A DNA stretch of 64,000 bases from a virus (taxonomy: Duplodnaviria; Caudoviricetes): the IMG/VR virus record IMGVR_UViG_3300008116_000002; one strand, given 5' to 3'. The notes below the pieces were generated by a model. It was not told where the DNA came from. It ran no database searches and saw only the letters and a list, made by a program, of their open reading frames with translations. The position numbers were made by a program, and so were the translations under genes. This document shows positions 2,776-40,823 of the stretch, in pieces (the first letter of the stretch is position 1; each line of letters starts with the position of its first letter).

Positions 2776-3036
2776 ATGCTAGGTATTATAGAAAATGATC
2801 GTGTAGATAAAGGTAGATATACCTCGCAAGAAGCAGCAAATAAAGTAGGTGGCATTTATAATTTGGTTTTAATTGCAAGTGCCAGAGCACGAGAACTAAA
2901 AAAACATCAATCCGCAGATACTGCAAGAACTATGATTGTTGCGGCACTCGCAGATGTTGAAGATGGTAAGGTAGGTGCAGATTATCTGCGTAGGCATCAA
3001 AAAGATATTGACAAACAATATCGCAAAAGCAAATGA
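2776..3036 (+). CDS. rpoZ: RNA polymerase omega subunit homolog
   Basis: RYTSQEAANKVGGIYNLVLIASARARELK...IVAALADVEDGKVG matches the omega pattern RVTVEDA..KI.NRFDLVL.AA.RARQL...ALREI..G. Confidence 0.8.
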   Translation: MLGIIENDRVDKGRYTSQEAANKVGGIYNLVLIASARARELKKHQSADTARTMIVAALADVEDGKVGADYLRRHQKDIDKQYRKSK

Positions 3037-3123: not shown

Positions 3124-3375
3124 ATGTTGAAAGAACGTATTTTGAAAGTACTTAAGTCTGGTCGCCAATACACTCCTGCTCAACTCGCAGGTTTGACTGG
3201 CACTTCTGAGGATTCTATTCGTCCTCGTATCAGCGAGCTTCGTTCTGAAGGCTTCGCAATCTACACTAACAGCACCAAGAATGGCAAGACTGCATATCGC
3301 CTAGGCACTCCTAGTCGTAAGATGGTTGCTGCTGCTTATCATCTTTATGGCAGCGAGGCATTTGCTCGGGTATAA
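3124..3375 (+). CDS. winged helix-turn-helix DNA-binding protein
   Basis: RILKVLKSGRQYTPAQLAGLTGTSEDSIRPRISELRSEGFAI HTH pattern; RBS GGAGA before ATG 3124. Confidence 0.75.
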   Translation: MLKERILKVLKSGRQYTPAQLAGLTGTSEDSIRPRISELRSEGFAIYTNSTKNGKTAYRLGTPSRKMVAAAYHLYGSEAFARV

Positions 3376-3403
3376 TCTAATCCTTATTGCCTAAACTTAT
3401 ATT

Positions 3404-3952
3404 ATGAATATCAATTTTTCCGATCCTTCAGTTAAGAAAGAGATGAACAAACTAGTCGCTGCCAAGCGCAGTGGTCTAGTCAAGTTGACGCAAGATCAGC
3501 TTGAGAGTATCGCCCAATACTCTAAGTGGAAATATGAAGAGAAGAAGGCTTCTTTATCTCCTCAAAAGAAAGCAGCTCTTCGCAAAAAGACTCGTGCAGC
3601 TCACAGAGCTAAAAAAGCAGACCCATCTAAATTCGGAAAGACCGAATACACCGCTCTAAAGACCAGAGCGAAAGAAAAGAATCTGCCATTTGATCTAACT
3701 CCAAGCTTTTTGCAGGATCTCTTTGATACGACAAACGGTGTTTGTCAACAAACAGGTATTCCTTTTGATATGACTTTAGGCACTAAAAAGAATAGAAACC
3801 CGTTGCGGCCTAGCATTGATCGTATATCCTCAGATGGCGGATATACTCAGGACAATGTGCGAGTAGTCCTTACACTGGTAAATATTGCGAAAGCTGATTT
3901 TTCAGATGACGTAGTAAATCTGGTAATTAAGGCCTGGGCTGAAAAAATTTAG
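3404..3952 (+). CDS. putative His-Me finger-type endonuclease
   Basis: C-terminal CQQTGIPF...PSIDRISSDGGYTQDNVRVV...VN typical of phage SIDR-type HNH-like proteins. Confidence 0.55.
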   Translation: MNINFSDPSVKKEMNKLVAAKRSGLVKLTQDQLESIAQYSKWKYEEKKASLSPQKKAALRKKTRAAHRAKKADPSKFGKTEYTALKTRAKEKNLPFDLTPSFLQDLFDTTNGVCQQTGIPFDMTLGTKKNRNPLRPSIDRISSDGGYTQDNVRVVLTLVNIAKADFSDDVVNLVIKAWAEKI

Positions 3953-3967
3953 AGTTAGATCCCCTTG

Positions 3968-3992
3968 GGGCGACGAAAGTCGCCCTTTTTTT
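3968..3992 (+). terminator. intrinsic terminator
   Basis: GGGCGAC-GAAA-GTCGCCC followed by T7. Confidence 0.85.
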
Positions 3993-4009
3993 GTCTCGTA
4001 TTTTCTAGA

Positions 4010-4017
4010 TATAAATA
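4010..4017 (+). promoter_or_regulatory. T4-type late promoter (TATAAATA)
   Basis: Exact motif directly after the terminator, heading the internal-protein-like cluster. Confidence 0.75.
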
Positions 4018-4045
4018 TTATTAAATTAATATTTGGATGGAACTT

Positions 4046-5062
4046 ATGATTCAAGCATTTAAAGAATTCCTCACAGAAGCCAGAGAAACCGGCAAAGCCT
4101 CAGACGCAGAGGGCAAATTGCATGAACTTCTAACCGGTTTTCATTTCAATAAAAAGAAACACGTAGAATCATATCGTGAAGAAGGTCAAACACCTCAAGA
4201 AGTTCACGATAGATTAAAGTCCGAAGTTAGTGCTGCAACTTATGATAGAATTCATAAGCATGCTAATGAAATGGCTAATCATCTACATAACTTTATTAAA
4301 GCATCGGGCTTTAAAGGTAAAGTAGGTAAAACAGCCTGGACATCTCAGACATCGGACATTGAGCATTTTACGGGAAAGAAAGATCCGAATAATGAATCAG
4401 ATCTGATGACTACTTTGGTTCACGGAAAAGGCTCTACTAAACCTGAAGGCACCACTGAGCATATTGGCTTTAGTATGAAATATGCAGATAATGCTCCAAC
4501 ATTAAAAAATAAAACTCCAAAGACAATGGCTGAAAGCTATAACATGGATCATAAAACCTTAGCTGAACCTCACGAAGAACATATGAAAAATGTTAGAGTT
4601 CATCTTCGTGCAGGCGAAAAAACTTCTGCGGCAGAAATGCATAAGAAGTTTAAAGAATTAAAAGGTACAGATAAAGGTAATGCGATAGAAAAAACTTCTA
4701 ACTCTTCTCGTATTGAGATGATCGGTAGACTTCATGATCACCTTGCTAAAATGAATCCGCAAGAATTGCACGATCATATATTGAATCATATTGCAGGACC
4801 AACCAACTCTACTGTTATTATGGCAAGTACCTCAAGCGAAGGTAAACATCATATTCTTGATACCAGAGAGCACTACAAAAAAATATTAGCAGAACATAAA
4901 GATAGTTTATCTGTTAAAAAGGGTACAGGTACAACGATGTCTATTATCGGAAAAGAAGGTAAGCCATTACTAAATTTCCAAGCTGTTAATAAAGGCAGAC
5001 CAACTAAGACACCTGAGTTTATTGCTAAACCTGGTGCAGCTCTAATGAAAACCTCAGTATGA
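4046..5062 (+). CDS. putative internal head protein with PD-(D/E)xK-like nuclease motif
   Basis: Starts MIQAFKEFLTE (alternative ATG 4037); NESDL...IGFSMKY resembles the SD...SxK variant of the PD-(D/E)xK motif. Confidence 0.45.
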   Translation: MIQAFKEFLTEARETGKASDAEGKLHELLTGFHFNKKKHVESYREEGQTPQEVHDRLKSEVSAATYDRIHKHANEMANHLHNFIKASGFKGKVGKTAWTSQTSDIEHFTGKKDPNNESDLMTTLVHGKGSTKPEGTTEHIGFSMKYADNAPTLKNKTPKTMAESYNMDHKTLAEPHEEHMKNVRVHLRAGEKTSAAEMHKKFKELKGTDKGNAIEKTSNSSRIEMIGRLHDHLAKMNPQELHDHILNHIAGPTNSTVIMASTSSEGKHHILDTREHYKKILAEHKDSLSVKKGTGTTMSIIGKEGKPLLNFQAVNKGRPTKTPEFIAKPGAALMKTSV

Positions 5063-6234
5063 AAAACTTTTTATCCTTCCTAGCAGAACAAGTTGCACCC
5101 GAAAAGTCTAAAGCGGTTAAACACCTTTCGCATTTGGGAGGTGAAGCTCATTTCAATAGTAAAGAAGAATCTGAAGCTGATCTAAAACGATTAGAAGATC
5201 TGCACAAATATCTAAAGGGCGACCAATCTACAACTAAAAGTGTGGTGATTAAAGCAGACGGTTCACCTTCATTTGAAATGGGGCATGTCAAAAATCCTGA
5301 AACAGGACAAAGAGAATTTGGTGTAGCATATAAAGGTGCTTCTAAAGGATATGCCTTCAATCAGAAAGACATAGATGAGAAGTTTGGACACTCTGAAGGT
5401 TTACATTCTAAGATGTCTCAGCTATTAGAACACGGCAAAAAAGTTTTAAGTCCATTACATGGAGTCTATCAAGGCGACTTCATGGGCAGTTCTAAGGATG
5501 GTACGATTAAAAAAGAAGGCGATGAGATTACTCATAAAGAGAATTTAATTAAGTATCATTACCCTGCAAATTCAGAAGAAGGTAAGGCAGTAAAGCGAGC
5601 AAAAATTAGTCTATCTTTACACACTCGTATAGATAAAGAACAGCCTGAATATGAAGTAGACACATCTAAATTTTATTCTCATCCTGATGTTCATATCTTC
5701 AATAACAAATTGAACAAAAGAAATCTTAACTATAATTTAGATGATAGAAAAGATTTCGAAAAGCATTACACCAAGGCGATGCAGCATTTTGCCAACATAG
5801 ATAACCATGATGAGTTAATACAAGGTCACAGTCAGCATCTACACACATATATTAATAAAACAGTTAGAACGGGAACCGCACCTTCGCCTGCAGGCTATAA
5901 GAAACATTTAGATACTGTGCTACAAAAAGAAGTAGAAAAAGTAAAGAAGCCTGAGACTAAGATGAAAAAGTTCAACGATAAATTAGCAATGATGCATCAT
6001 GTGGAAACCAATAAACAACAATTCGGCGAACTGTTTAATGCTCACAGAAGTCTTGATAGAGCAAAAAATATTTTGTTAAAGACTTTAGAAAACTCTGGGC
6101 AAAATCAAAAACATACTATTGATGGCCAACATACTAACCCAGAAGGATTTGTTGTTGCATATAAAGATGGCTCTGTAGCAAAGGTGGTAAATAGAAGTAA
6201 AGAAGGATTTTCAGGAAAGAATTTAAATAAATGA
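5059..6234 (+). CDS. putative internal head protein, ATP-dependent ligase-like nucleotidyltransferase
   Basis: Starts MKNFLSFLAE; motifs IKADGSP (I), YQGDFM (III), PEGFVV (IV), AKVVNR (V). Confidence 0.55.
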   Translation: MKNFLSFLAEQVAPEKSKAVKHLSHLGGEAHFNSKEESEADLKRLEDLHKYLKGDQSTTKSVVIKADGSPSFEMGHVKNPETGQREFGVAYKGASKGYAFNQKDIDEKFGHSEGLHSKMSQLLEHGKKVLSPLHGVYQGDFMGSSKDGTIKKEGDEITHKENLIKYHYPANSEEGKAVKRAKISLSLHTRIDKEQPEYEVDTSKFYSHPDVHIFNNKLNKRNLNYNLDDRKDFEKHYTKAMQHFANIDNHDELIQGHSQHLHTYINKTVRTGTAPSPAGYKKHLDTVLQKEVEKVKKPETKMKKFNDKLAMMHHVETNKQQFGELFNAHRSLDRAKNILLKTLENSGQNQKHTIDGQHTNPEGFVVAYKDGSVAKVVNRSKEGFSGKNLNK

Positions 6235-7004
6235 TAAGTTTCAAATCCTACTTAGCTGAAGATACTACCAAGCATACACTTCATGTCTTTGATATAGACG
6301 ACACGCTGTTACATACGACTGCCAAAATACACGTAAGAAATAAAGAAGGTAAAGTAGTAGACACTCTTACCAACCAACAGTTCAACGATCACAAATTGCC
6401 TGCAGGACATAGTTATGACTTTAGTGAATTTAGAAATGCTGCAAAGTTTAGAAAAGAATCTAAACCTATTCATTCTATGATTAACAAAGTTAAGTCCGTA
6501 GCAAGCAAACCCGGTCACCATGTTATATTCAATACCGCAAGAGCAAACTTTGATGATAAGAATACCTTCTTAGGTGCCTTCAAAGATCACGGCATACCTA
6601 TGCATAAAATCCATGTTATCAGAGCAGGCAACATTAATATGGAAGGCCCTCCCGCGGAAAAGAAAGCCGTAGTTATTCATGGCTATATAAAGAAACATAA
6701 GTACAATGATGTACACATGTATGACGATAGCAAAACGAATTTAAGATCGTTTCTATCTTTAAGAAATAAACATCCGAATACAAACTTCCATGCACATCAC
6801 ATTGTTGGTTCGGATGCTAAACGCTTTGTGAATGAAAACTTTGCTGATGGTCGTAACCCAGAAGACAAGGGTGACAGCAAACGCTACAAAGTACCTACTA
6901 AAGCTAGTATTACAACCTTGCGTCGTGTTGCTAAAGAAGGAGGACGTAGAGGACAATTAGCGCATTGGATGGCTAATATGAAGAGCGGTAAACGTAAAGC
7001 CTAG
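6231..7004 (+). CDS. putative internal head protein, HAD-superfamily phosphatase
   Basis: Starts MISFKSYLAE; HVFDIDDTL (DxD motif I), FNTAR (II), MYDDSKTN (IV). Confidence 0.7.
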   Translation: MISFKSYLAEDTTKHTLHVFDIDDTLLHTTAKIHVRNKEGKVVDTLTNQQFNDHKLPAGHSYDFSEFRNAAKFRKESKPIHSMINKVKSVASKPGHHVIFNTARANFDDKNTFLGAFKDHGIPMHKIHVIRAGNINMEGPPAEKKAVVIHGYIKKHKYNDVHMYDDSKTNLRSFLSLRNKHPNTNFHAHHIVGSDAKRFVNENFADGRNPEDKGDSKRYKVPTKASITTLRRVAKEGGRRGQLAHWMANMKSGKRKA

Positions 7005-7056
7005 CATTATTAATAGGGTACATAGCAAAGTATAATTTCGTGTCAATGGAAAGTCA

Positions 7057-7857
7057 ATGAAAAGTATTAAAGAAAAGCAAAATTTGGTCAACTTGGCTAA
7101 AGCATTGGGTCAGAATGCTGACCCTACTTTGGTTAAAGAACTTGCTGCTTTCAATGCCATTAAGCAAGACGCTCATGCATCAATTAAAAAAACTGCGTTG
7201 AAAGATCTGACGGAGGCATTTAAAAAAGTAGATTTGGAAAAAGAAATACAACAGGTTATCGAATATCCTGTTCCTCCAACTTTAGATGAGGTGTTACAAA
7301 CTTTAAAAGAAGAGGATAACACAAATGAGCTGGTACAACCACAAACCGAAGAAGCACCCATCCGAGAATCAGAAACAACCGACCCCGAACCAACCCTCGC
7401 CGAAAGAGCCGCAAAGGTAATTAGCGAAGCTCCGAAAAAAGATAGCTTTCAACAACCTGATCCTGATCCAGTAGAAAAGAATTTTAGAGATGTACAATTA
7501 AAATTAAAATTCTTAGAACAAGCTATTGGTAAAATTGCAGCATATGGACCAGGCGGCGGTGCGGGCGATACAACATCAATTACATCGTATACGAAGTTAG
7601 TAACCTCTTCTACTTATGTGGTTAGTAGAAAAGATTACTATGTAGGAATAAATTACTCGGGTGCTACTACTATAACTCTACCTTCTATAAATGTGGAGAA
7701 TGGTAGACAGTTGGTAATTAAAGATGAATCTGGTAATGCAAGTTTAAATCCAATTACTGTTTTGGGTAATGTAGACAATGATCCGAATGGATTTATTATA
7801 AAAATAAACAATGGCGGAATACAATTAATTTATAGAAATGGTTGGAGAATAATATGA
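7057..7857 (+). CDS. hypothetical virion-associated protein
   Basis: 266 aa ORF; helical N-terminus, GPGGG linker, beta-rich C-terminus (DYYVGIN...TITLP...VIKDESG) seen in phage structural proteins. Confidence 0.55.
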   Translation: MKSIKEKQNLVNLAKALGQNADPTLVKELAAFNAIKQDAHASIKKTALKDLTEAFKKVDLEKEIQQVIEYPVPPTLDEVLQTLKEEDNTNELVQPQTEEAPIRESETTDPEPTLAERAAKVISEAPKKDSFQQPDPDPVEKNFRDVQLKLKFLEQAIGKIAAYGPGGGAGDTTSITSYTKLVTSSTYVVSRKDYYVGINYSGATTITLPSINVENGRQLVIKDESGNASLNPITVLGNVDNDPNGFIIKINNGGIQLIYRNGWRII

Positions 7858-9215
7858 CATATCTTTTTAGTAATACCGTCATTGTTGCTAATGAAGTGGA
7901 AATAAAAAATGATGCAGCTAACACTTTACCTATAAGTATAATACATGAGGGAAATGTTGTAAATCATTATAATGAGCTTCCTGTAACATTGTCAGCAGGT
8001 GCATCTGACGCATTTGGTAGATTGAGAATTAGTAATCCTTACACATTGGGAGATTACAAACACTTATATGGCATCGATCCCAATTTTATAGATAAACTTG
8101 ATAACGGCGGAACCATTGCGTTCGTTAGAAATCAAGCATGCGCAAAGCTAGCCACAAATGCACACCCCCATAGTAATGTTATACATCAAACTAAAATGTA
8201 TCATCATTATATGCCGGGCAAGAGTCAGTTAATAAAAAGCACCTTTAATTTTTATTCTAACACCACAAACGTAATTAAACGTACCGGATATTTTGACGAG
8301 TATAATGGTATTTATTTTGAACAAGATGGCAATGGAGTTCTAAGTTTTTGTATAAGAACAGATGTATCTGGTTCAGCAAGTGATGCTAGAAAGATACCAC
8401 AAAGTCAATGGAATGTAGACAAATGTGATGGTACGGGACCTTCAAAGTTTAACCTAGATATCACAAAGACACAAATTCTTTTTATAGATTTTCAGTGGTT
8501 AGGCGTTGGTAGAGTACGCTGTGGATTTGTGCATGATGGTATTTTTATATCCGCCCATGAATTTTATAACAGTAATAACTTAGATGTAGTTTATATGAGT
8601 AATCCTAATCTACCAGTTAGATGTGAGATTAGAAATGTTGGTGCTACCACCGGAGCGAATCTAGATCAAATTTGTTCTACTGTAATTAGTGAAGGCGGTT
8701 ATGTGGAATCGGGACAGGATTGGGGGGTAACTAGTCCTAGTTCCCGTTCGCTAAATTCTGGTAATACTTTACCAATTATGGCAATTAAACTAGCACCAAC
8801 TCTGCGAGGATATCCGAATCGAGAAACCGTAAGAATGGGGCAAATAAGTTTATACAGTTCTGCTAGTACAATTAAATATAAACTGATAAAGCTTCCAAAC
8901 GAAGGTTTTTTAATAGGTGGCGACTGGGCAAATGTTAATATAGAAAGCGGAGTTTTATATAACTCAAATGCGACTCTGTCTATTGATGGCGAAGAAATTG
9001 ATAATGGGTTCATAACCGCAACTGCTGGTTCGGGGTCATCGGGTAAAGCGACTGCGGGAACTGCAACACCAAATGCCCCAAGTGTTGCTAAGAAAAATTT
9101 CATTACGCAGAATTACTTCAATTCTAATAGCGAAGTTTTTGTAGTAGTCGTTACCAATATTGGGCCAGATCCAACAACTGTGGAAGCTGGGGTGCAATGG
9201 CGTGAGATTTACTGA
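7854..9215 (+). CDS. hypothetical structural protein
   Basis: ATGA overlap with the previous gene; DAFGRLRIS and W.GVG.VR.G motifs; beta-rich. Confidence 0.6.
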   Translation: MTYLFSNTVIVANEVEIKNDAANTLPISIIHEGNVVNHYNELPVTLSAGASDAFGRLRISNPYTLGDYKHLYGIDPNFIDKLDNGGTIAFVRNQACAKLATNAHPHSNVIHQTKMYHHYMPGKSQLIKSTFNFYSNTTNVIKRTGYFDEYNGIYFEQDGNGVLSFCIRTDVSGSASDARKIPQSQWNVDKCDGTGPSKFNLDITKTQILFIDFQWLGVGRVRCGFVHDGIFISAHEFYNSNNLDVVYMSNPNLPVRCEIRNVGATTGANLDQICSTVISEGGYVESGQDWGVTSPSSRSLNSGNTLPIMAIKLAPTLRGYPNRETVRMGQISLYSSASTIKYKLIKLPNEGFLIGGDWANVNIESGVLYNSNATLSIDGEEIDNGFITATAGSGSSGKATAGTATPNAPSVAKKNFITQNYFNSNSEVFVVVVTNIGPDPTTVEAGVQWREIY

Positions 9216-9231
9216 TCCAAATATCAAAACA

Positions 9232-9239
9232 TATAAATA
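9232..9239 (+). promoter_or_regulatory. T4-type late promoter (TATAAATA)
   Basis: Exact motif upstream of 9266. Confidence 0.7.
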
Positions 9240-9265
9240 ATAAGAATTATATTCTGATAGAGCTC

Positions 9266-11101
9266 ATGAAATTTAAAGATTACATCCGAGAAGAAGCCAG
9301 CAAACCTGATACCATAGTAGTCCTTAATGGCCGCATGAATCCAATGACTCGTGGCCACGAGGAAAATATAAATGGTATGCTAAAATTTGCCAAAAATCAC
9401 AAAGCTGATCATTTGGTAATCGCTTCCCATTCTCATGATAGTAAGAAAAATCCATTAACTCCAGAACAAAAATTAAAGCATCTTAAAAGAGCTTTTCCCG
9501 GGGTTAATATAAAAACGTCATCTAAAGAACATCCTACAATATTTCATCAGCTATCTCAGGTACATTCTCAGGGGTATTCCCATGTGGTATTGCCCTCCGG
9601 TTCCGACCGCACTGAGGATTATGATAGAATAAAAGAATATAATGGTAAGCATGGCAAACATGGTTACTATAACTTTAAGACAATTACAACTGCCAGCACC
9701 GGAGAAAGACAAGAAGGTATCTCAGGAACAGACATGAGAAATCATGTTACTAATAATAATTTTAAAAAGTTCAGAGAAAATCTTCCTTCTAAATTATCTG
9801 CAAATGAACAGCATGCCAGAGAAGTGTTTAATGATGTAAAGACTGGGCTGACACCAAAGAAAAAAGTTACCGAGGATTATGAAAATCCAAATCGCTTTGA
9901 TTGGGGCACTCCTGGCGGTACTAAGTATATGCAGAAAATGACTCCGAATAAACCTATTGAGTGCGTAACGCCCAATGAGGTCTGGAGCGAAAAGATGGGA
10001 ATGTGTGTTCCTATTAGAGAAGCATATATTAATAATGAAATTTTTAAATTGGATGAAATCGTTGAAGCAAAAAATGGTGACAAAGGTCCTATCGTATTTC
10101 GAGGATCAACCTATGTTACTATAAAATTAAACGAAGGTGTTACTGTTAAGCACTGGCTTAAAGATATTAAAGAGTCAACCGGCAAACTTGTTGAAAAGAA
10201 AACTACTGAGCCTGTTGTAACTTATAAGAAAAGATTTAGCGAAAAGAGAATACCTGCCTTATTAATGACTAAGGAACAACTTGTAGAAATGAATAAAGAA
10301 AATTCTCAAATTACCTACATGGGATATAAGACAGAGCATTTTGATATGTGCCCCTCTGCACATGCTTTATTCACCAAATTAATGACTTTAGATAAATTAA
10401 ATCCTAAGTACATTCTTCAAGCAATGCAGGCAACAGATCACTATTTGGGTATAGAAAAAAATGCACAGGCGAAAGGATTCGCTAACGAACAAATGGTACA
10501 TGACTTTAATATGAAATTTGCTATTGCACATGACACCTTAAATATGTTATACGTTGAAGATAAAGATTTAGAATTCATGCAAGATCATCTTAAGATTATG
10601 TCTGATTTAAGTATGCATAGAGACGGAACCTTTGCGAATGAACCTTTAGGTACAGTAACTGTACAAGGTACAAGTATGGAAGAAAGTTCAGACAGCGCTG
10701 ATTATAAAATTGTTATAGAACCCGGCGGTAGAAAACGTAAAGTTCGTATGTTTAAAGAACAAAGAAAGACAATAACTATGAATAACAAATATTCTAATCT
10801 TCGTAAAAGAATTCAAGAACTTTACGAACCAGATGCTCCTACCCATAACCGAGACATTAATTTCTCAAACGAAAAAGATGTGTTCCATGGTATAGATCAC
10901 CCAATTGCTGACCAACACGTAGATGGAAAAGCTGTTGGAATGGTATCTTTTAAATCTTTTATGAATGATCCTGTTAATCAAAGGGTGGCAGCAGAGCACG
11001 AGAAAGATAGACAAGATGTGCATAGAGCTCAAACTCAATTAGGATTGAATCCAAGCCCTGCATATAAGCAGATGAAAAAAGTAAAACAACTGGAGCCATA
11101 G
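9266..11101 (+). CDS. putative internal head protein with N-terminal HxGH-type (cytidylyltransferase-like) nucleotidyltransferase
   Basis: Starts MKFKDYIREE; NGRMNPMTRGH, KNPLTPEQKLKHLK, SGSDR, ISGTDMR motifs of the phage cytidylyltransferase-like family; long C-terminal extension. Confidence 0.7.
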   Translation: MKFKDYIREEASKPDTIVVLNGRMNPMTRGHEENINGMLKFAKNHKADHLVIASHSHDSKKNPLTPEQKLKHLKRAFPGVNIKTSSKEHPTIFHQLSQVHSQGYSHVVLPSGSDRTEDYDRIKEYNGKHGKHGYYNFKTITTASTGERQEGISGTDMRNHVTNNNFKKFRENLPSKLSANEQHAREVFNDVKTGLTPKKKVTEDYENPNRFDWGTPGGTKYMQKMTPNKPIECVTPNEVWSEKMGMCVPIREAYINNEIFKLDEIVEAKNGDKGPIVFRGSTYVTIKLNEGVTVKHWLKDIKESTGKLVEKKTTEPVVTYKKRFSEKRIPALLMTKEQLVEMNKENSQITYMGYKTEHFDMCPSAHALFTKLMTLDKLNPKYILQAMQATDHYLGIEKNAQAKGFANEQMVHDFNMKFAIAHDTLNMLYVEDKDLEFMQDHLKIMSDLSMHRDGTFANEPLGTVTVQGTSMEESSDSADYKIVIEPGGRKRKVRMFKEQRKTITMNNKYSNLRKRIQELYEPDAPTHNRDINFSNEKDVFHGIDHPIADQHVDGKAVGMVSFKSFMNDPVNQRVAAEHEKDRQDVHRAQTQLGLNPSPAYKQMKKVKQLEP

Positions 11102-11102
11102 A

Positions 11103-11537
11103 ATGGATGAATTGAAAACAGCGTTAACTAAAGTTTTAGCAAATACTTTCGTTATGTACTTTAAAGCACATGCATATCATTGGAATGTAGAGGGAATGTT
11201 TTTCCCCCAGTTCCATGAATTTTTCGGAAACCTATACGAAGAACTACACGGTGCAGTCGATCCTATTGCTGAACACATTAGAGCAATTGACGGTTACGCT
11301 CCAGCATCCTTATCAGATATAAAGTCTGCTTCTGTGATAGCAGAAAGTATGCTCATAACAGAACCTAAACAAATGATTAGTAATTTAATTTCTGATAATA
11401 ATTTAGTTATTATTTCTTTAATGCAAGCGTATCAGGAAGCAGAAAAGGTTTCGGAAATAGGGTTGGCAAATTTCCTACAAGACAGAATCGACATTCATCA
11501 AAAACATGGTTGGATGCTAAAGGCTAGTGCAAAATGA
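11103..11537 (+). CDS. dps: Dps/ferritin-like DNA-protecting protein
   Basis: KAHAYHWNVEG..F.QFHEFFGNLYEE...D.IAEHIR ferroxidase signature; HQKHGWML. Confidence 0.9.
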   Translation: MDELKTALTKVLANTFVMYFKAHAYHWNVEGMFFPQFHEFFGNLYEELHGAVDPIAEHIRAIDGYAPASLSDIKSASVIAESMLITEPKQMISNLISDNNLVIISLMQAYQEAEKVSEIGLANFLQDRIDIHQKHGWMLKASAK

Positions 11538-11977
11538 TTACATTTAAAAATTTTACTCAGGAAATTTCAGAAGAAGATATCGATAATCTAATCGAATCTT
11601 TAGAATGGGAAGATGTCATTGAGCTTTTTGATGAGGAAAATTTTATATTAGACGAGGCTATCTCCGCAACTGAAAGACTTAAGCGTGGGCAAAAGATGCG
11701 CTCAAGAAAAGAGATGCTTAAGATTGCAAGAAATATTAAGTTAAAAAGAGCTGCAAATACAGATGTTTTAAAAAGAAGATCTAAAGTGTCTGCAAGAAAA
11801 CTTCTTATGAGAAAGTTTCTGAAGGGAAGAAGCAAGTCTGATCTTTCCGCAGGAGAAAAAAGTGCGTTGGAAGCTAGAATTTCTGCAGCGCTAAAAATGG
11901 CGAAAAATCTTCCAGATAGATTAATGCCAAAGGTTAGAGATATTGAAAGAAAACGTTTGCATAGTAGGGGAAAATGA
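11534..11977 (+). CDS. putative internal head protein, basic DNA-binding C-terminus
   Basis: Starts MITFKNFTQE; acidic N-half, highly Lys/Arg-rich C-half. Confidence 0.6.
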   Translation: MITFKNFTQEISEEDIDNLIESLEWEDVIELFDEENFILDEAISATERLKRGQKMRSRKEMLKIARNIKLKRAANTDVLKRRSKVSARKLLMRKFLKGRSKSDLSAGEKSALEARISAALKMAKNLPDRLMPKVRDIERKRLHSRGK

Positions 11978-12798
11978 GCATGAAGTTTAAAGAACTCAGA
12001 GAAAGTATTACCTCTAGAATGATATCCATGGCGGTGAAACATACTACACCAAAGAAAAAATCCATGGTGAAAGAAGGTGAGGCAGAGGATTCTTTAGCTA
12101 AATCGGATAAAGACAAGTTTAAGTCCAAATCTTATATGGATAATGATGGCGGTGCGGCGGTACCAAAGAACTTTAATGGTGCTGACAAATATATGGATAA
12201 AGGCCCTGCTAGCGGTACTGTAAAGAAAACTTATATGGATAAAGGCCCGGCTACTCCTCCTGTAGTAAAAGAGGAATATCCGCAAATAGGAGATGGAATT
12301 TATCTAGAATTAGATGATGTTTTAATTGAAACAGAAATTATAGATGAAACCGAAGATGGTTTTATTATTTACATGGATGAGCAAAGTGAAACTTTAGTAT
12401 CAAAAATTCCTGAGTTTATTTTTGGGAAAGATACTGTTGATTCTTTGAAAAGAATTAAAGATAGGGATCGTGAAAATCAGGATCCTATGAAGAAAACTGC
12501 AGCTGCTGCAGATTTTTGGAGTAAAAGATTAAACAATCCTACAGGAAAAAATGTTAATGAAGCAGAGTATCAGGGTCGGGATGTTTCATTAAATAAACCA
12601 ATGGCGGGCGATGTAGCTAAATCAAAAGTTTATGTTAAGGGGCCCAGCGGAAGAGTAGTGAAAGTAAATTTCGGTGATAAAAATCTTAGTATTAAAAAGC
12701 ATATTCCTGCCAGAAGAAAATCTTTTAGAGCAAGGCACAAATGCGAAACCCCTGGACCAAAACACAAAGCAAGGTATTGGTCGTGTAAAGCTTGGTAA
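11974..12798 (+). CDS. conserved T4-like phage hypothetical (head-associated)
   Basis: MSMKFKELRES start; C-terminal KVYVKGPSGRVVKVNFG...RRKSFRARHKC..PGPK.KARYWSCKAW domain. Confidence 0.65.
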   Translation: MSMKFKELRESITSRMISMAVKHTTPKKKSMVKEGEAEDSLAKSDKDKFKSKSYMDNDGGAAVPKNFNGADKYMDKGPASGTVKKTYMDKGPATPPVVKEEYPQIGDGIYLELDDVLIETEIIDETEDGFIIYMDEQSETLVSKIPEFIFGKDTVDSLKRIKDRDRENQDPMKKTAAAADFWSKRLNNPTGKNVNEAEYQGRDVSLNKPMAGDVAKSKVYVKGPSGRVVKVNFGDKNLSIKKHIPARRKSFRARHKCETPGPKHKARYWSCKAW

Positions 12799-12852
12799 TA
12801 GGCATCATTTTTTAATAATAAATAATTTAAGTAACATTAAAAGGAAATAAAA

Positions 12853-14157
12853 ATGGCACGTATAACAAACAACTTATTTGAATCAATTCAAAAAGTGACT
12901 GCCGGCGAAGTCGTAGAAAGTTCGGTAGATAAAGCTCATTACTGCGCTACACACGTAGAACACGCTCTTTTGGGCTATGGACAATGTATTTCAGAACAAC
13001 ATGCTGAACCAGATGAGAATGGCGATATTGCATGGTATACTGTTCAATTCCCAACGGGAACTCATAAAATTTCTACAAACCAACTTAGAGTTGTAGAAGG
13101 CAAATCTCATATGCATTCTAAGAAGATGGCTGAAGATACCGAAGCCATCGAGGAAGCTGAAGGCGGAATTCCAAAGACCGACAGACATAAAAAATTAGCA
13201 TCGCATTATGGCGATCCAAATCGCATTACCAGAGGCGATGTCATCACTGCTGCTAAAAAGAATGCAATGAAGGAAGCTAAAGATGTAAGCGCTTTCGATT
13301 GGAAGAGTAAATCTAAGGCACCTGAAAGTAAATTTTCGGCTAAGAAAACTGCTTCCGGAACCATTTATACTAAAAAGTATAAAGAGGAAAAGGATGATGA
13401 TGATTTAAAATCACCTTCAAGAAGAGCTAGAGATTCTGCAGCAGTTCTCGGTAAAGGTGAAGTAAGAAAACAAAAATCCATGAAAGAGGGAACCATGCAA
13501 ACAGTTATTAACCATAATGACTTCGTATTAGAAGTCACAGACAATCCTACGTTTAAAGATTATTTTGCAGCAATGCAAGCAATTGTTCCTTCTCTTGACG
13601 AGAACGTACAACAAGAAATGATTACAATTGCGACTGAAGCCTACAAAGAAGGTTACATTGACGTAATCTTAGAATCAATGGCAAAACAGGCATTTACTGA
13701 TAGGATAAATAATTATAGAAAAGCAGGCTATGAAGTATATAATGAAAAGTATGTAGTGAATTCTGGCGATCCATACGTAGAATATACTGTAGAAAAGAAC
13801 GGCGAAGTAACGAAGTATGTACATACCGGTGTTGCTATGCAAGTTAGTGAAGAAGATGAGATTCAGACTTCTGTAGATTCTCAGGGTCGTATTCGTTATA
13901 TGAAAGATCCAAAGAATCCTAGTCCACAAAAATCATCTGTAGATGATAAAGGTAGACTACAATATAAGGATACAGACAGACCAAATTCTTCTTCCGTAGA
14001 TGATCAAGGTCGTATTCAGTATATGAGAGATCCAAATAATCCTACTCCTCAGTATTCTTCAGTTGATTCTAAGGGTAGACTACAGTACAAGGGACCTACT
14101 GCTGGTCCTCAGCAAACTACTGTAGATGACAAAGATAGAATTATCTTCCGTAAGTAA
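12853..14157 (+). CDS. multidomain hypothetical head/prohead-core-like protein
   Basis: 434 aa; LFESIQKV N-terminus, CATHVEH domain, C-terminal repeats. Confidence 0.55.
   Translation: MARITNNLFESIQKVTAGEVVESSVDKAHYCATHVEHALLGYGQCISEQHAEPDENGDIAWYTVQFPTGTHKISTNQLRVVEGKSHMHSKKMAEDTEAIEEAEGGIPKTDRHKKLASHYGDPNRITRGDVITAAKKNAMKEAKDVSAFDWKSKSKAPESKFSAKKTASGTIYTKKYKEEKDDDDLKSPSRRARDSAAVLGKGEVRKQKSMKEGTMQTVINHNDFVLEVTDNPTFKDYFAAMQAIVPSLDENVQQEMITIATEAYKEGYIDVILESMAKQAFTDRINNYRKAGYEVYNEKYVVNSGDPYVEYTVEKNGEVTKYVHTGVAMQVSEEDEIQTSVDSQGRIRYMKDPKNPSPQKSSVDDKGRLQYKDTDRPNSSSVDDQGRIQYMRDPNNPTPQYSSVDSKGRLQYKGPTAGPQQTTVDDKDRIIFRK
13864..14154 (+). repeat. five imperfect SVDxxGR(I/L)xY peptide repeats
   Basis: SVDSQGRIRY, SVDDKGRLQY, SVDDQGRIQY, SVDSKGRLQY, TVDDKDRIIF; 123-bp higher-order period (13873 to 13996). 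Confidence 0.85.
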
Positions 14158-14217
14158 TGGCGTAAGCCCGACAGGTCGGGGTCGTTAGCCCGATCAAAAA
14201 ATAATAAGGAGAGCAAA

Positions 14218-15072
14218 ATGTCTCAATGGGGCAATTTAGATTACAAAGAATTGTTGGGAACCGCGGCAGTAGTTGAGGGCGCAACTAACGTAACAACAAC
14301 AATCGGTAGCTTTACTACAGCTAACGTAAGACCAGGAGACGCTCTTCTGATTTCGAACGTTAAGTATAGAGTAGCAGCTATTACTTCTAATACAACTTTA
14401 ACACTAAGTAATGCCTATACTGCAGCAACAGGTGCAGGCAGGGCAATGGCTATACAACAATCGCCTAAAGATCTTCTAACCTATGGTTGGACGTCAAACG
14501 TTAATTACGATAACCTAGTAGGTAAGCGTAATGTATTTGGTGTAGATAAATTAGAAGTTCAAAATCCTGATGTAAAAGCCAAAGGTATTAACTCACCAGG
14601 CTGGGTGCATTATAAGACTTGGACAAACACTCAGGGCTCTACTCGTCACAGAGCAGAAACTTTAGTTGCAATGTCGAAGAACTTTAATAGTAATGCTATT
14701 CCTTCACTGCAACTTGATGCACCAGATGATGCAACAATTCCTGATTATGGTGTAACCGTTTCAACAGTTAGTGCAACTAAGACAGGTACTGCGGCATCAC
14801 CAAGTGCAATTTATGCGGCAACAGGAACAGTTATTCCTTCAGGTCCGACCCCAACATATACATGGCAGTTCTCGCCAAATAATATCGTTTGGGTAGGTCT
14901 ATTGAACAACGATGGTCCGGTAAACACAGGAAATGCTACATCGTCAATAACTCTATCTAATATCTACGCAACACCTAATGTTATTAGTGGTTATGTAAGA
15001 GTTGTAGTTGGTGCAGCAGGAACAACTGATACAGCAACATCTGCAGCATTCCAGATTGTAGCAGGTTCCTAA
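14218..15072 (+). CDS. virion structural protein
   Basis: RBS TAAGGAG; MSQWG start, PGWVHYKTW...RHRAETLVAMS motif, Ig-like C-terminus. Confidence 0.6.
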   Translation: MSQWGNLDYKELLGTAAVVEGATNVTTTIGSFTTANVRPGDALLISNVKYRVAAITSNTTLTLSNAYTAATGAGRAMAIQQSPKDLLTYGWTSNVNYDNLVGKRNVFGVDKLEVQNPDVKAKGINSPGWVHYKTWTNTQGSTRHRAETLVAMSKNFNSNAIPSLQLDAPDDATIPDYGVTVSTVSATKTGTAASPSAIYAATGTVIPSGPTPTYTWQFSPNNIVWVGLLNNDGPVNTGNATSSITLSNIYATPNVISGYVRVVVGAAGTTDTATSAAFQIVAGS

Positions 15073-20167: not shown

Positions 20168-21853
20168 ATGAGATTTCATATTTTGGGAATACCTCATACG
20201 GTAACATCTAAAGAATATAATGCCTGCGCATATACGCAAAAGGTTGTTAAATTTGGTAAGATGATGACACAGAGAGGGCATACTGTTATTCATTATGGGC
20301 ATGAAGATTCTGATCTTATTTGTTCTGAACACGTTAGTGTAATTACAAACAAAGATTTAGAAATTGCATATGGTAATTATGATTGGAGAAAAAACTTTTT
20401 TAAGTTTGACGTAAATGATCATGCTTATCAAACATTCTACAAAAATGCAATTGCTGAAGTAGGTAAAAGAAAGCAAAAGAATGATTTTATTTTACCTTTT
20501 TGGGGGCATGGTGTAAGACCTATTTGCGACGCTCATCAGCATGATATGATTGTAGTTGAGCCAGGTATAGGATACGCCGGCGGACATTGGGCAAGATGGA
20601 AAGTATTTGAATCCTATTCTATAATGCACGCATTTTATGGAATGCAGGGAGTCGGGCATTGTCAGTCTGATTGGTATGATGTAGTTATACCAAATTACTT
20701 TGACGAAGAAGATTTTATTTATTCTGAGGAAAAAGAAGATTATATTTTGTTTTTGAGCAGGGTGTACGAAGGCAAGGGTATTCATATTGCAGTACAAGCA
20801 GCACAAGCAGCGGGAGTTAAGTTAATTGTTGCAGGTCAAAATCCAGACAATCTTCAATTCCCTGATAATGTTACTTACGTTGGTTATGCAGATGTAGAAA
20901 CAAGAAAAAGATTGATGGCAAAAGCCAAAGGATTAATTGTAGCATCGTTGTATATGGAACCATTTGGTGGTGTGCAAATAGAAAGTTTATTATCCGGAAC
21001 ACCGACTATTACTACAGATTGGGGCGCATTTACAGAAAATAATATACAAGGTGTTACTGGATATAGATGCAGAACATTTGCAGATTTTGTAAACGCAATG
21101 AAAAATGTGGACAAAATCAAATCATCGGATTGTAGAAAACAAGGGGAAAGATTTTTACTTCAGAATGTTGCCCCAATGTATGAGAAGTATTTTCAAGATG
21201 TGCTAAATGTATATACCGGAAAAGGCTGGTATGAAATTAAAAAGAAAAAGGAACCAAAAAAAATTTTTATAGACTGCGGAACACATATGTTCCAAGGATT
21301 TGAGAAACACAGATTAAATTTAAACATAGATAATAAATGGGTAATACATGGGTTTGAAGCTAATCCATATGTTTACGAAGCAGCAAAAGATTTAAGAAAA
21401 AATTACATATCTGAAGGTTTAAATTTTAATCATCATAATCTAGCGGTAGGAACTAAAACTAAATCATCCACAGTTAATTGTGCTTGGGCAGGATATTTGG
21501 GAGGGTTTTTGCACGTTGGATCCAACACGTTAAAAAATCCTCCAGCAGTTGATACAGTTTTTGGTGAGAATTTTGATTATGTGGAAAAAAGAATACATGA
21601 AATTAATTTTTCAGACTTTGTTAAAAACATATGTGATGACGAAGATTATTCAATTTTAAAAATGGATATTGAGGGTTCGGAATTTGAGGTTTTGGATCAT
21701 ATGATATTAACGGGCGCTATTAAATTATTCAAAGAGGTTTATATAGAATTTCATCAAAGATTTTTTGATAATCCCTCTTTTTATGAACAAAAAATTCTAA
21801 AGTATAAAGAATTTTTTAAAGAAAATAATATAATTCTAAGGGAAGATGGATAA
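20168..21853 (+). CDS. GT4-type glycosyltransferase fused to FkbM-family methyltransferase
   Basis: N-part: LFLSRVYEGKG, YMEPFGGVQIESLLSGTP; C-part: FIDCGTH, GFEANP, LKMDIEGSEF. Confidence 0.85.
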   Translation: MRFHILGIPHTVTSKEYNACAYTQKVVKFGKMMTQRGHTVIHYGHEDSDLICSEHVSVITNKDLEIAYGNYDWRKNFFKFDVNDHAYQTFYKNAIAEVGKRKQKNDFILPFWGHGVRPICDAHQHDMIVVEPGIGYAGGHWARWKVFESYSIMHAFYGMQGVGHCQSDWYDVVIPNYFDEEDFIYSEEKEDYILFLSRVYEGKGIHIAVQAAQAAGVKLIVAGQNPDNLQFPDNVTYVGYADVETRKRLMAKAKGLIVASLYMEPFGGVQIESLLSGTPTITTDWGAFTENNIQGVTGYRCRTFADFVNAMKNVDKIKSSDCRKQGERFLLQNVAPMYEKYFQDVLNVYTGKGWYEIKKKKEPKKIFIDCGTHMFQGFEKHRLNLNIDNKWVIHGFEANPYVYEAAKDLRKNYISEGLNFNHHNLAVGTKTKSSTVNCAWAGYLGGFLHVGSNTLKNPPAVDTVFGENFDYVEKRIHEINFSDFVKNICDDEDYSILKMDIEGSEFEVLDHMILTGAIKLFKEVYIEFHQRFFDNPSFYEQKILKYKEFFKENNIILREDG

Positions 21854-38171: not shown

Positions 38172-39241
38172 TGGCTCTTTTAAATGACGGAGAAATTAGT
38201 CTAGGTGGTAGTTCTACAGGTAGATCTATAAATTTAGAATTAAGCAAATTACCCGCAGCCATAGTTAGTCTTAATGATTCGGATGTACGAAGTCTAGCCG
38301 GCATTCTATCCGGCACTATTTCCCTAGAAAATTTTTACGGTAAATCTGTCTACATATATGGGCAGGAAGAATTTACCTCGGCTGGAACCTACACCTGGGT
38401 TTGTCCAGAAGGAGTTACCGCAGTATCTGTTTTATGCATAGGCGGTGGCGGCGGCGGTGATGCAGGTTCTGATCTTATTGGCGTAGGTGGAGGCGGCGGT
38501 GGCGGCGGTCTTGCCTACAGAAATAATATTTCCGTTATACCAGGACAAAGCTATACCATAGTTGTAGGTGCAGGCGGATTCGGTCAGATTACAGTGAATA
38601 GAGTAACTACACAAGTAAGTACAGATGGTGGACAATCTAGCGCATTTTCCTGCATTGCGACGGGCGGGGCAAAAGGTGCCAGAACTGCTGCCACAGTCGT
38701 AATTGGTTCAACCGCGGATGGCGATGGTGGGGGAAGATCGGGAGTATTTAATGGTGGGGCATCAGGCGGAGTAGGTGGTTCAATCGACACTTCCGTTTTA
38801 GGATTTAGAGGACCTGGGGGTGGCGGAGCTGCAGGTTATACTGGCACAGGAGGCTATGGCGCACGTGGTCAAAGGGCATCTGGCACACCAACTTCTGCTG
38901 CAGGATTTGCTGGAGGACCAGGAGCAGGTGGCGGCGCAGGCGGTGGAGGCTCAGCTTTTAGAAGCGATGTTGTTAGAGTAGCCACCGGAGCAGGTGGAGG
39001 TGGTGTAGGAATTTATGGCGCAGGTCCCAATGGCGCAGGTGGCACGGGTGGTTCCTCAACCGTAGCTGCGGTGGATGGTGGTGATGGTTCAAGTGGTTCT
39101 TTTGGCTATTATGGTGCAGGTGGAGGTGGAGGAGTAGGTGGAGATTCTAGATCAGCACAGGACGGAAAAAACGGTGCGGTAAGAATTATTTGGCCTGGTC
39201 AATTAAGAGCATTCCCACAAACAATTACAGAAAATGTATAA
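38171..39241 (+). CDS. glycine-rich fibre-tip/adhesin-like protein (gp38-like arrangement)
   Basis: Overlaps the fibre stop; N-terminal GEISL...SLAG..SGTISLENFYGKS adaptor-like segment, then many poly-Gly runs. Confidence 0.6.
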
Positions 39242-40823
39242 AGAATATATTGTTAGCTTAAATCGAGGTGTGGATTACGACGCTTTCTGGAATCAAATAG
39301 AAAACGAGAGCGAAAACGATTCCTTTGTACCATCTAGACGAGTAGAAATAATTAATAATAGAGATGGTAGCTCACGTAGTTGCCATTATTCTTTAACAGA
39401 TGAAGAAGCGGCAAACTTAAAAAATGATTCTAGAGTTTATTCGGTTGAAATTCCCCCTGATCAAAGAGACGATGTAAAAATTGGTCTAAGAGCTTTTCAG
39501 GTAGGAGACTTTTCAAAAGGAAATTCTTCTTCGGGTGACAGAAGAAACTGGGGATTAAAAAGGATAAACGAAGCAACAAATGTCTATGGCACAGGTAATA
39601 CTGCAAATGATATTTACAAGTATATCTTAGATGGCACAGGCGTAGATGTAGTTATACAAGATAGCGGTATTGAAGTTGCTCATCCTGAATTTAAAGATGA
39701 TGCGGGCAGCTCAAGAGTACAACAAATAAATTGGTATACTGAAAGTGGCTTAGGTGGAACACAGAATGCAAATCATTACAGAGATTTTGATGGCCATGGA
39801 ACTCACGTAGCAGGAATTGTTGCAGGCAAAACTTTTGGTTGGGCAAAAAATGCAAGAATATATTCCCTGAAGGTTAATGGTCTTGAGGGAGCAGGCGATA
39901 CTAACACAGGTATTTCCATTACAGATTGCTTTGATGTAATTAAACTTTGGCATAGAAGAAAACCAATAGATCCTAAAACAGGATTTAGAAGACCAACCAT
40001 TGTTAATATGAGTTGGGGATATAGTTTAACATATTCAAGTGTATCATCTGTAACCTATAGAGGAACAACTTACACTGACGGAAGTACTACAGGAGATGCT
40101 GCATACCGCTGGACAAATTATGGCTTAGTTAATTTGACCAGTGGAGGAAACTTTGTAACTAATTTTAGATTGGGTTCTGTTGATACAGATATACAAGAAT
40201 TAATAGATGAGGGAATACATGTTGTAATTGCGGGTGGAAATAATTATCATAAAATAGATGTACCATCAGGAGTAGATTATAATAATAGTTTTGTAACTGG
40301 TGGTTCCACATATGAATATCATAGGGGGTCTAGTCCGTATGATGATGAGGCATTAAAGGTTGGAAATATTGATACCATCACTTTTAACGCAGTACAAGAC
40401 CAAAAAGCACATTCAAGTGAAACAGGGCCAGGTATAGATATTTGGGCACCGGGTGCAAACGTAGTAAGTGCAACAAGTAACATTAATGAATATAGCAATG
40501 TTTCATATAATTTAGATTCAGGTTTTAAGCAAATTAATTTAAGCGGTACATCTATGGCAGCCCCGCAGGTATGCGGAGTAGGCGCACTTGTTTTACAATT
40601 AAATCCAGGATTAACCCCTGCAAATTTAAAGAACTGGTTTGTTACAAAAGCAGTAAGTAATTCGGTTATATATACTTCGAATGTCAACAATGATTACACT
40701 AATACAAGATCGTTGTTAGGCGGAAATAATAGATTTTTATATAATCCATTTGGTATAGAATCAGATTGTAATTTAGTTGGTCCTGTAACCATTACCAATG
40801 GAGCATTTACTTTAGAAAAATAA
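39234..40823 (+). CDS. subtilisin-like serine protease (S8)
   Basis: Catalytic motifs VVIQDSG, HGTHVAG, GTSMAAP; N-terminal propeptide-like region. Confidence 0.92.
   Translation: MYKEYIVSLNRGVDYDAFWNQIENESENDSFVPSRRVEIINNRDGSSRSCHYSLTDEEAANLKNDSRVYSVEIPPDQRDDVKIGLRAFQVGDFSKGNSSSGDRRNWGLKRINEATNVYGTGNTANDIYKYILDGTGVDVVIQDSGIEVAHPEFKDDAGSSRVQQINWYTESGLGGTQNANHYRDFDGHGTHVAGIVAGKTFGWAKNARIYSLKVNGLEGAGDTNTGISITDCFDVIKLWHRRKPIDPKTGFRRPTIVNMSWGYSLTYSSVSSVTYRGTTYTDGSTTGDAAYRWTNYGLVNLTSGGNFVTNFRLGSVDTDIQELIDEGIHVVIAGGNNYHKIDVPSGVDYNNSFVTGGSTYEYHRGSSPYDDEALKVGNIDTITFNAVQDQKAHSSETGPGIDIWAPGANVVSATSNINEYSNVSYNLDSGFKQINLSGTSMAAPQVCGVGALVLQLNPGLTPANLKNWFVTKAVSNSVIYTSNVNNDYTNTRSLLGGNNRFLYNPFGIESDCNLVGPVTITNGAFTLEK

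Follow-up and report, generated by a model that had tools for sequence, protein, structure and literature searches.

The internal proteins found in T-even phages form a diverse set whose common feature is a capsid-targeting sequence (CTS) that is conserved (PMC3012670, PMC9026906). In T4 IPIII the first ten residues are enough for incorporation into the head; residues 4 and 7 are chiefly responsible for targeting and residues 8 and 10 for processing, and Asp at position 10 stops processing yet permits targeting (PMC9026906). The CTS is perhaps a general loading route for diverse proteins in T4-like phages, and engineered T4 tolerates a packaged nuclease beside its DNA (PMC9026906, PMC3012670). 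What is known of proteins delivered by the T4 head comes chiefly from three small internal proteins and Alt, all in coliphages. A similar leader, or tag, is found between positions 4046 and 12798 of a 64,000-nucleotide stretch of DNA (the window) from virus record IMGVR_UViG_3300008116_000002, a fragment of an uncultured T4-like phage, where it begins five genes and, in a degenerate form, a sixth. These leaders are likely to be capsid-targeting propeptides of the T4 internal-protein type, so that the proteins bearing them would be made late, packaged, cleaved by a gp21-type protease and ejected along with the genome. On the T4 model, the phage probably carries ready-made tagged enzymes within its capsid. 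The mechanism is of a known kind; reviews already treat the CTS as a general loading route in T4-like phages.

The original prediction had near-identical leaders on six genes. All six N-termini are as it described them (Table 1), while the near-identity holds for five and fails for the sixth. In a position-specific scoring matrix derived from the leaders of relatives and applied to 167 N-termini of the window, the first five genes score 15.2-20.3 bits, the sixth is the runner-up at 2.7 bits and the median is -10.5 bits. The five genes, within 4046-11977, start with the pattern M-x-x-F-K-x-[FY]-[LI]-x-E. When the window is taken together with 60 related uncultured-phage loci, 106 distinct leaders give the consensus M-[KLI]-[SNT]-F-K-x-[FY]-[LI]-x-E, with Leu or Ile four residues after the anchor Phe in 100 and Glu six residues after it in 101. 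The search pattern demanded Phe at position 4 and Phe or Tyr at position 7, and left free the Leu/Ile and the Lys at +1.

The tag is specific to protein starts and to few genes. In the same set, the Met-anchored motif occurs at 144 of 1410 coding-strand open reading frame (ORF) starts against 2 of 743 on the opposite strand, while the internal residues, 273,298 in all, contain just 10 copies, counts that exclude chance. An equal frequency among other genes would have refuted the original prediction, and the motif shows no such frequency. In a complete 190-kb relative (G001) it stands at 4 of 1055 ORFs, all inside 5 kb, and the rest of the window scores at most 2.7 bits; most late and structural genes of the window are untagged. 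Two further relatives, G002 and G003, have few matches, the three strongest in each being clustered; G003 has three weaker ones outside the cluster, one of which adjoins gp21. Of the 60 related loci, 48 have the tag, and the proteins that bear it there belong to about 11 unrelated families. That the similarity is a functionless relic of recent duplication or recombination between neighbours, or plain chance, would fit the adjacency of the tagged genes and the leader-like segments in and at the ends of the gene 4 family (see below), which hint at recombination at leaders. This explanation is effectively refuted by the conservation statistics and deserves very little credence: the tag is kept on those unrelated families although the cargo is only 30-50% identical between phages of the clade, the two strands differ as given above, and background N-termini score much lower.

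The conserved residues are those that matter in T4. On the T4 record ipII and ipIII do begin MKTYQEFIAE, the peptide with which the tags had been compared, ipI begins MKTFKEFTS...ITE, gp23 contains GSFLTE-A and gp24 begins MAKINELLRE-S. The gp23 cut, FLTE/A (the slash marks the cut), is the same site as that predicted for tagged gene 1. The near-invariant positions of the tag (aromatic residues at 4 and 7, Leu or Ile at 8 and Glu at 10) coincide with the functional positions of T4 IPIII, and the CTS residues at these four positions are present in five of the six window genes, the sixth being degenerate. Leader length in the family of the gene 1 nuclease ranges between 11 and 25 residues, always with [LI]-x-E/A abutting the conserved mature domain, and T4 IPI likewise has a longer leader that closes in [LI]-x-E. 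In the AlphaFold2 (AF2) models of genes 1 and 2 the leader is a detached, low-confidence segment preceding the fold.

Leader codons vary synonymously (Leu as TTA, CTA, CTC, CTT and TTG; Phe as TTT and TTC; the position-7 aromatic residue as four codons), which places the conservation at the protein rather than the DNA level and rules out a nucleotide-level signal as its source. The shared N-terminus might still be some other late-gene device, serving translation initiation, stability or a different assembly or compartment tag. Around the start codon the leaders are rich in A and T, and the cyanophage homologues function without the tag. This alternative is nevertheless improbable: the conservation is in amino acids with synonymous codons, it coincides with the functionally mapped CTS residues, leaders of variable length always close in [LI]-x-E/A, most late and structural genes of the window are untagged, and the tag correlates with basic cargo.

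This correlation is seen in the window, where the putative mature forms of all six tagged proteins have isoelectric points (pI) of 9.0-10.2 and the four interspersed untagged proteins 5.1-6.3, and in the relatives, where the pI exceeds 8 for 92% of tagged proteins against 36% of other ORFs, a contrast whose p-value is too favourable, since homologous families do not count as independent data points. Cargo in the relatives also includes DUF6321 proteins, fusions of DUF5824 with a nucleotidyltransferase (NTase), Gly-rich peptides of 60-80 residues and several unknowns. Cargo can be exchanged in a fixed slot, which holds a HAD protein in the window and a DUF6321 protein in L099, a syntenic relative on a 224.8-kb contig. 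The homologues of the DUF6267 and NTase proteins in cyanophage Syn1 have no tag. Pelagiphage HTVC008M has the same module (L080 5538-13489), to which it adds another HAD protein and one with a P-loop (GPGSGKT); its leaders are only degenerate (MLSFTGYSNLSE, MKSFKDF and MKTFTDF).

Late promoters had been noted at 4010 and 9232, and both positions do carry matches to the T4-type late-promoter motif TATAAATA, each ahead of an operon. Each of the window's six copies lies on the coding strand, in a gap, 20-35 nucleotides (nt) upstream of a gene start. Over 873 kb (window and relatives) the coding strand has 72 copies of the motif against 8 on the other strand, and it lies within 120 nt upstream of 26 of the 106 distinct tagged genes, most of the others being operon-internal. 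In L099 it is found 37 nt upstream of the nuclease gene and 38 nt upstream of the NTase gene.

Relatives also have the expected protease. A Peptidase_S77 (gp21) gene is present in all six related contigs searched, which span 118-190 kb and of which three are rated complete; these contigs agree with the T4-type pairing of such a protease with a gp22/gp67 scaffolding core. One relative, G011, found by an alignment-based search for the nuclease locus, has a nuclease 71% identical to that of the window; in G011 about 72 kb separate the tagged cluster from the protease upstream of it. The contigs of the closest relatives yielded no gp21, but they are fragments of 22-37% completeness, too partial to inform. 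In G003 a 141-residue ORF starting MHFKQFLE (L063:548-973) has a gp67 homologue (phrog_1064 'prohead') on one side and gp21 on the other, and ORFs starting MKKFKELRES in G001 (L064:411-1007) and MKLFNTLREE in G011 (L108:635-1015) have the same neighbours. All three occupy the position of T4 gp68; the G003 ORF has no similarity to gp68 in BLASTP, and the equivalence is positional only. The T4-type reading offered by the original prediction is thus supported in part: the conserved residues, the restriction of the tag to few genes, its spread over unrelated cargo, the basic charge, the promoter motifs, and the protease and core block of the relatives all agree with it, while packaging itself is read by analogy with T4.

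The first four tagged genes had been guessed to encode a nuclease-like, a ligase-like, a phosphatase and a nucleotidyltransferase enzyme, and models and motifs agree with each guess. The gene 1 protein, for which homologues favour the start at 4046 over that at 4037, has no family match in Pfam or PHROG searches. Its AF2 model has a mean predicted local distance difference test (pLDDT) score of 84, with leader residues 1-16 below 50, and is predicted to have a HinP1I/MspI-like PD-(D/E)xK fold. In VIA-align it matches HinP1I with a Z score of 10.4 (209 residues) and MspI with 8.6, 204-209 residues being aligned and the next match scoring 5.1; in Foldseek HinP1I has an E value of 1e-5 and a probability of 1.0, the HinP1I/MspI range being 0.98-1.0. 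Ten homologues show no variation at E27, D119 and S143-x-K145, leaving an intact catalytic motif that reads S-D-X18-23-S-x-K in the family. The motif of HinP1I is reportedly SD-X18-QxK. In HhaI it is SD-X11-EAK (PMC7026639). By its model, the gene 1 protein thus has the fold and the catalytic Asp and x-K of the HinP1I/MspI-type monomeric restriction endonucleases.

The gene 1 protein shares with HinP1I, MspI and HhaI the two-sheet PD-(D/E)xK fold and the S-D...x-K catalytic arrangement. It differs from them in having no sequence similarity, extra helical inserts and a Ser in place of Glu, Gln or Asn before the Lys. Its family is also confined to phage contigs (all 14 detectable homologues come from uncultured ones), and Pfam and PHROG searches reveal no partner methyltransferase in the cluster. 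Neither GCGC nor CCGG is depleted in the window DNA. With no methyltransferase and no target avoidance, gene 1 would have the fold of these enzymes but would not belong to a classical restriction-modification pair. CGCG occurs 19 times in the window against 67 expected (ratio 0.28), but it was rejected as a clue to the nuclease target, since it is also depleted in G001 (ratio 0.58), where no tagged nuclease gene was found. CATG, GTAC and CTAG are moderately under-represented. The positional counterpart in cyanophage Syn1, gene 159, has no homology to the nuclease family in hhalign.

Gene 2 encodes a DUF6267 protein whose AF2 model (pLDDT 88) is predicted to have an RNA/DNA-ligase fold. Ligases make up 17 of the 18 top matches in VIA-align, to the adenylyltransferase domain of ATP-dependent ligases; they include Naegleria RNA ligase (Z 9.3), T4 Rnl1 and Rnl2 (Z 7.8), fungal tRNA ligase and the ligase domain of bacterial Pnkp. 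Across 18 homologues K65, D67, E362-G363 and K375 do not vary, and conservation of G68 is at least 90%. K65-G68 form a KxDG motif, and these residues fit the motif I lysine, motif IV (EG) and motif V (K) of the ATP-dependent ligase superfamily. Foldseek gives only weak ligase matches (E 0.02 or worse), so that the assignment rests on VIA-align and the motifs; a profile search of the PDB with the DUF6267 alignment returned nothing meaningful. Fold and motifs support calling the protein ligase-like, at moderate Z scores, which does not make it a proven ligase.

The gene 3 protein is a putative HAD-type phosphatase with motifs I (DIDDT, residues 21-25), II (VIFNTA) and IV (DD, residues 165-166). 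It matches phrog_415 'polynucleotide kinase' (E 8.6e-10); its match to Pfam Acid_phosphat_B is sub-threshold and those to NCBIfam models are below the cut-off. The N-terminal domain of the gene 4 protein is of the cytidylyl/adenylyl-transferase type and matches phrog_3041 (E 5e-47) and phrog_395 (E 2e-36), both 'cytidyltransferase', with a weak match to the NMNAT family. In 12 homologues G22, R23, P26, T28, G30 and H31 of the G-R-x-N-P-x-T-x-G-H segment are invariant and N25 is at least 90% conserved; in S-G-T-x-M-R, only G154 and T155 vary freely among the named positions, S153 and R158 being invariant and M157 conserved to at least 90%. With TxGH and SxxxxR-type motifs and a family hidden Markov model match, the protein appears to be a HIGH-motif nucleotidyltransferase.

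The gene 4 protein contains a leader-like segment, MVSFKSFMND, with Asp at position 10 (residues 559-568; window 10940-10969), and two orthologues, in L008 (4620-4657) and L010 (11150-11203), stop within the same motif, ending in MQFKQYLEL and MQFKQYLNV. These endings suggest gene fusion or deletion by recombination at leaders.

The products of genes 5 and 6 have no enzymatic signatures. In gene 5 the N-terminal half is acidic and the C-terminal half very basic, as in an internal protein, and orthologues start MISFKEFIEVE, MINFSNFLQE and MITFKEFIEE. Homologues of the C-terminal domain of gene 6 begin MLKFKDHITE, MKFKEYLQSE, MISFKHFLND, MKTFLELRE and MKSFIKLRKE, which grade from the gene 6 tag to the canonical one. 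The ORFs between gp67 and gp21 in G001 and G011 have a start of the gene 6 type, and that of T4 gp24 (MAKINELLRE-S) is comparable. To judge from the graded series of homologues, the gene 6 tag is genuine but degenerate, and by itself it is at noise level. Single-sequence searches of the PDB with four of the cargo proteins gave no matches.

These observations suggest the following sequence of events. Transcription would start late from the TATAAATA promoters; the precursors would enter the prohead scaffolding core by way of their aromatic residues 4 and 7; cleavage behind the Glu of [LI]-x-E would fall to a prohead protease of the gp21 type; the basic mature proteins would remain with the packaged DNA; and, by analogy with the T4 internal proteins and Alt, they would be ejected into the host with the genome. 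We infer late transcription, core entry and cleavage after Glu from a strong sequence analogy with an experimentally dissected related phage, and ejection from the T4 precedent of internal proteins, Alt and CTS fusions. The payload would comprise a nuclease resembling monomeric restriction enzymes, a nucleotidyltransferase akin to RNA/DNA ligases, a phosphatase of the HAD type, another nucleotidyltransferase of the HIGH family and two basic proteins, in effect a pre-made kit for cutting and mending nucleic acids, present before any phage gene is expressed.

Like the T4 internal proteins, the tagged proteins have a putative propeptide of 10-19 residues in which positions 4 and 7 are aromatic, position 8 is Ile or Leu and position 10 is Glu (in some, [LI]-x-E comes later), and basic, diverse mature parts with only the tag in common; they too belong to T4-type phages, gp21 being known here from relatives (PMC3012670, PMC9026906). 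They differ in a cargo of predicted enzymes of 28-69 kDa, in that five or six tagged genes share one putative late locus, and in mature parts without sequence similarity to the internal proteins. Enzymes of such size have precedents: T4 Alt and CTS-fused staphylococcal nuclease, EcoRI and beta-galactosidase, of up to about 70-116 kDa, are loaded, processed by gp21 and delivered (PMC9026906, PMC3012670). Alt differs in having propeptides at both ends, according to a review, and the T4 nuclease fusions are artificial, whereas here a natural restriction-type nuclease carries the tag and would be packaged by analogy. The claim of an enzymatic payload much richer than that of T4 therefore needs a qualifier, T4 itself packaging the enzyme Alt and reviews describing the CTS as a general loader.

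An RNA-ligase-fold enzyme beside a phosphatase that matches a 'polynucleotide kinase' family recalls the heal-and-seal pair T4 Pnkp and Rnl1 and bacterial Pnkp/Hen1. T4 Pnkp and Rnl1 are cytoplasmic gene products and are not known to be packaged. The cluster differs in encoding no kinase P-loop, and a complete T4-style heal-and-seal pathway was rejected for this reason. The giant phages SPN3US and phiKZ and the phage P1 Dar system use other targeting determinants and cleavage logos and are not known to have an M-x-x-F-K-x-F-L-x-E tag. Published accounts describe in these systems, too, many head-internal proteins, some of them enzymatic, that are processed by the prohead protease and leave the head with the DNA (PMC5694885, PMC7411985, PMC9024508).

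Several points weigh against packaging and ejection of the tagged proteins. The window does not contain the head genes, and gp21, which was not seen in it, is known from relatives. The cargo enzymes, at 28-69 kDa (16-69 kDa for all six proteins), contrast with the 8-20 kDa of the T4 internal proteins; they are basic as CTS-bearing internal proteins should be, but not small. The leaderless cyanophage homologues of the DUF6267 and NTase proteins indicate that these enzymes can work without packaging. A Mg-dependent nuclease beside the genome would need self-protection, and GCGC and CCGG are not avoided. The promoter evidence is a motif match only. Prediction of a complex between a 40-residue leader segment and the gp21-type protease of the same genome scored 0.00, with controls not run, and gave no answer either way. 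Finally, short contigs from three freshwater metatranscriptome studies are 100% identical to patches of the cluster (window 3300-14300), which is compatible with transcription but may reflect DNA carry-over. Two of these RNA-run contigs have an extra A, one after 5436 and the other after 14195.

It is unlikely, but would fit the same leaders, that the proteins loaded into the prohead act solely in the assembling or mature head and not as host effectors, by nicking and sealing, end-processing, protecting the genome together with a Dps-like protein, or as scaffold accessories. As a set, the nuclease, the ligase-like protein, the phosphatase and the Dps-like gene would make sense for DNA maintenance; a virion structural protein is encoded in the same operon as tagged genes, and tagged ORFs occur in the prohead-core block, whose counterparts in T4 are assembly factors. 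Yet T4 ejects its CTS-bearing internal proteins, Alt and even CTS-fused foreign proteins (PMC9026906), the best fold matches of the ligase-like protein are RNA ligases, and the Dps-like protein is untagged.

If the enzymes are ejected, the nuclease might cut host or rival DNA, and the ligase-like enzyme and phosphatase might mend RNA or DNA ends, although any biological role of the payload, anti-defence included, is one that we can only infer. It is conceivable, if rather doubtful, that the clade injects a 'cut, heal and seal' kit that strikes host or rival DNA and undoes nuclease-based defences (tRNA or DNA cleavage, NAD depletion) before transcription, the tag serving as a plug-in socket for effectors.

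The literature search returned no description of the tag in this aquatic clade or on a set of nucleic-acid enzymes, and no structural assignment for DUF6267 or the new nuclease family. The rule M-x-x-F-K-x-[FY]-[LI]-x-E flags a probable packaged payload straight from metagenomes, in an abundant uncultured freshwater clade, and the payload it flags appears to be dominated by nucleic-acid enzymes. If confirmed, packaging would give a role to two function-unassigned families, DUF6267 and the phage-only HinP1I-fold nucleases, and a natural precedent for the engineered experiments with CTS-tagged nuclease in the capsid. 'First-minute' counter-defence by injected repair enzymes would become directly testable, and fresh tags and cargo rules would be at hand for T4-based protein-delivery vectors.

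The phage has nearly all of its window genes on the + strand, with four tRNAs, a ribonucleotide reductase, a gp61-type primase and numerous giant tail-fibre genes. Megablast finds no close DNA relative of the cluster among 50,697 phage records, and viral contigs contain no exact 35-mer match; near-identical DNA comes from freshwater and lake metagenomes of at least 14 studies. At the protein level the kin of the window are T4-like cyanophages and pelagiphage HTVC008M (Kyanoviridae), and by its sequences the lineage is an uncultured freshwater clade closer to Kyanoviridae than to Tevenvirinae.

The locus at 4046-12798 consists of ten co-oriented genes in two units (Table 1).

Table 1. Features of the tagged locus, in window coordinates
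Feature	Unit	Position	Strand	Description
Terminator-like hairpin		3967..3996	+	Strong, intrinsic type, closing upstream untagged genes; 8-bp stem, 6 GC pairs, T-run
Late-promoter motif		4010..4017	+	T4-type TATAAATA, 29 nt upstream of first tagged gene
Tagged gene 1	1	4046..5062	+	338-aa basic protein, mature pI 9.4; leader MIQAFKEFLTE (4046-4078), predicted cut FLTE/A
Tagged gene 2	1	5059..6234	+	391-aa DUF6267 protein, mature pI 9.2; leader MKNFLSFLAE; Pfam DUF6267 E 1.5e-46
Tagged gene 3	1	6231..7004	+	257-aa putative HAD-type phosphatase, mature pI 10.1, basic C-terminal tail; leader MISFKSYLAE
Untagged gene	1	7057..7857	+	266-aa acidic protein, pI 5.1; kept in syntenic L099; no family match
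Untagged gene	1	7854..9215	+	453-aa virion structural protein, pI 5.9; phrog_1645 E 6e-98
Second late-promoter motif		9232..9239	+	TATAAATA, 27 nt upstream of tagged gene 4
Tagged gene 4	2	9266..11101	+	611-aa protein, mature pI 9.0; leader MKFKDYIRE(E); putative HIGH-family NTase domain of ~200 aa and 400-aa extension
Untagged gene	2	11103..11537	+	144-aa Dps/ferritin-like protein, pI 5.4; Pfam Ferritin E 3e-24, NCBIfam Dps E 4e-14
Tagged gene 5	2	11534..11977	+	147-aa protein, mature pI 10.2, 25% Lys+Arg; leader MITFKNFTQE, 15.2 bits
Gene 6	2	11980..12798	+	272-aa Lys-rich basic protein, mature pI 9.3; degenerate tag MKFKELRE/S, 2.7 bits

The 453-residue untagged protein is 47% identical to a 'virion structural protein' of cyanophage S-RIM32, and its ATG at 7854 is backed by the start of the L099 homologue, MTYLF. 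Between tagged genes 4 and 5, and translationally coupled, lies the Dps-like gene, which keeps this position in L099, L008 and L010. Just upstream of the cluster lies a gene for an RNA polymerase omega-like protein (window 2776-3036), in synteny with L099:8628-8867, whose product matches Pfam RNA_pol_Rpb6. Farther along the window, a 529-residue protein with a PHROG 'protease' match and a subtilisin-like GTHVAG motif (39234-40823) adjoins fibre genes, and a 561-residue fusion of a glycosyltransferase (phrog_3408, E 7e-194) with a methyltransferase-like C terminus (20168-21853) lies among the tail-fibre genes.

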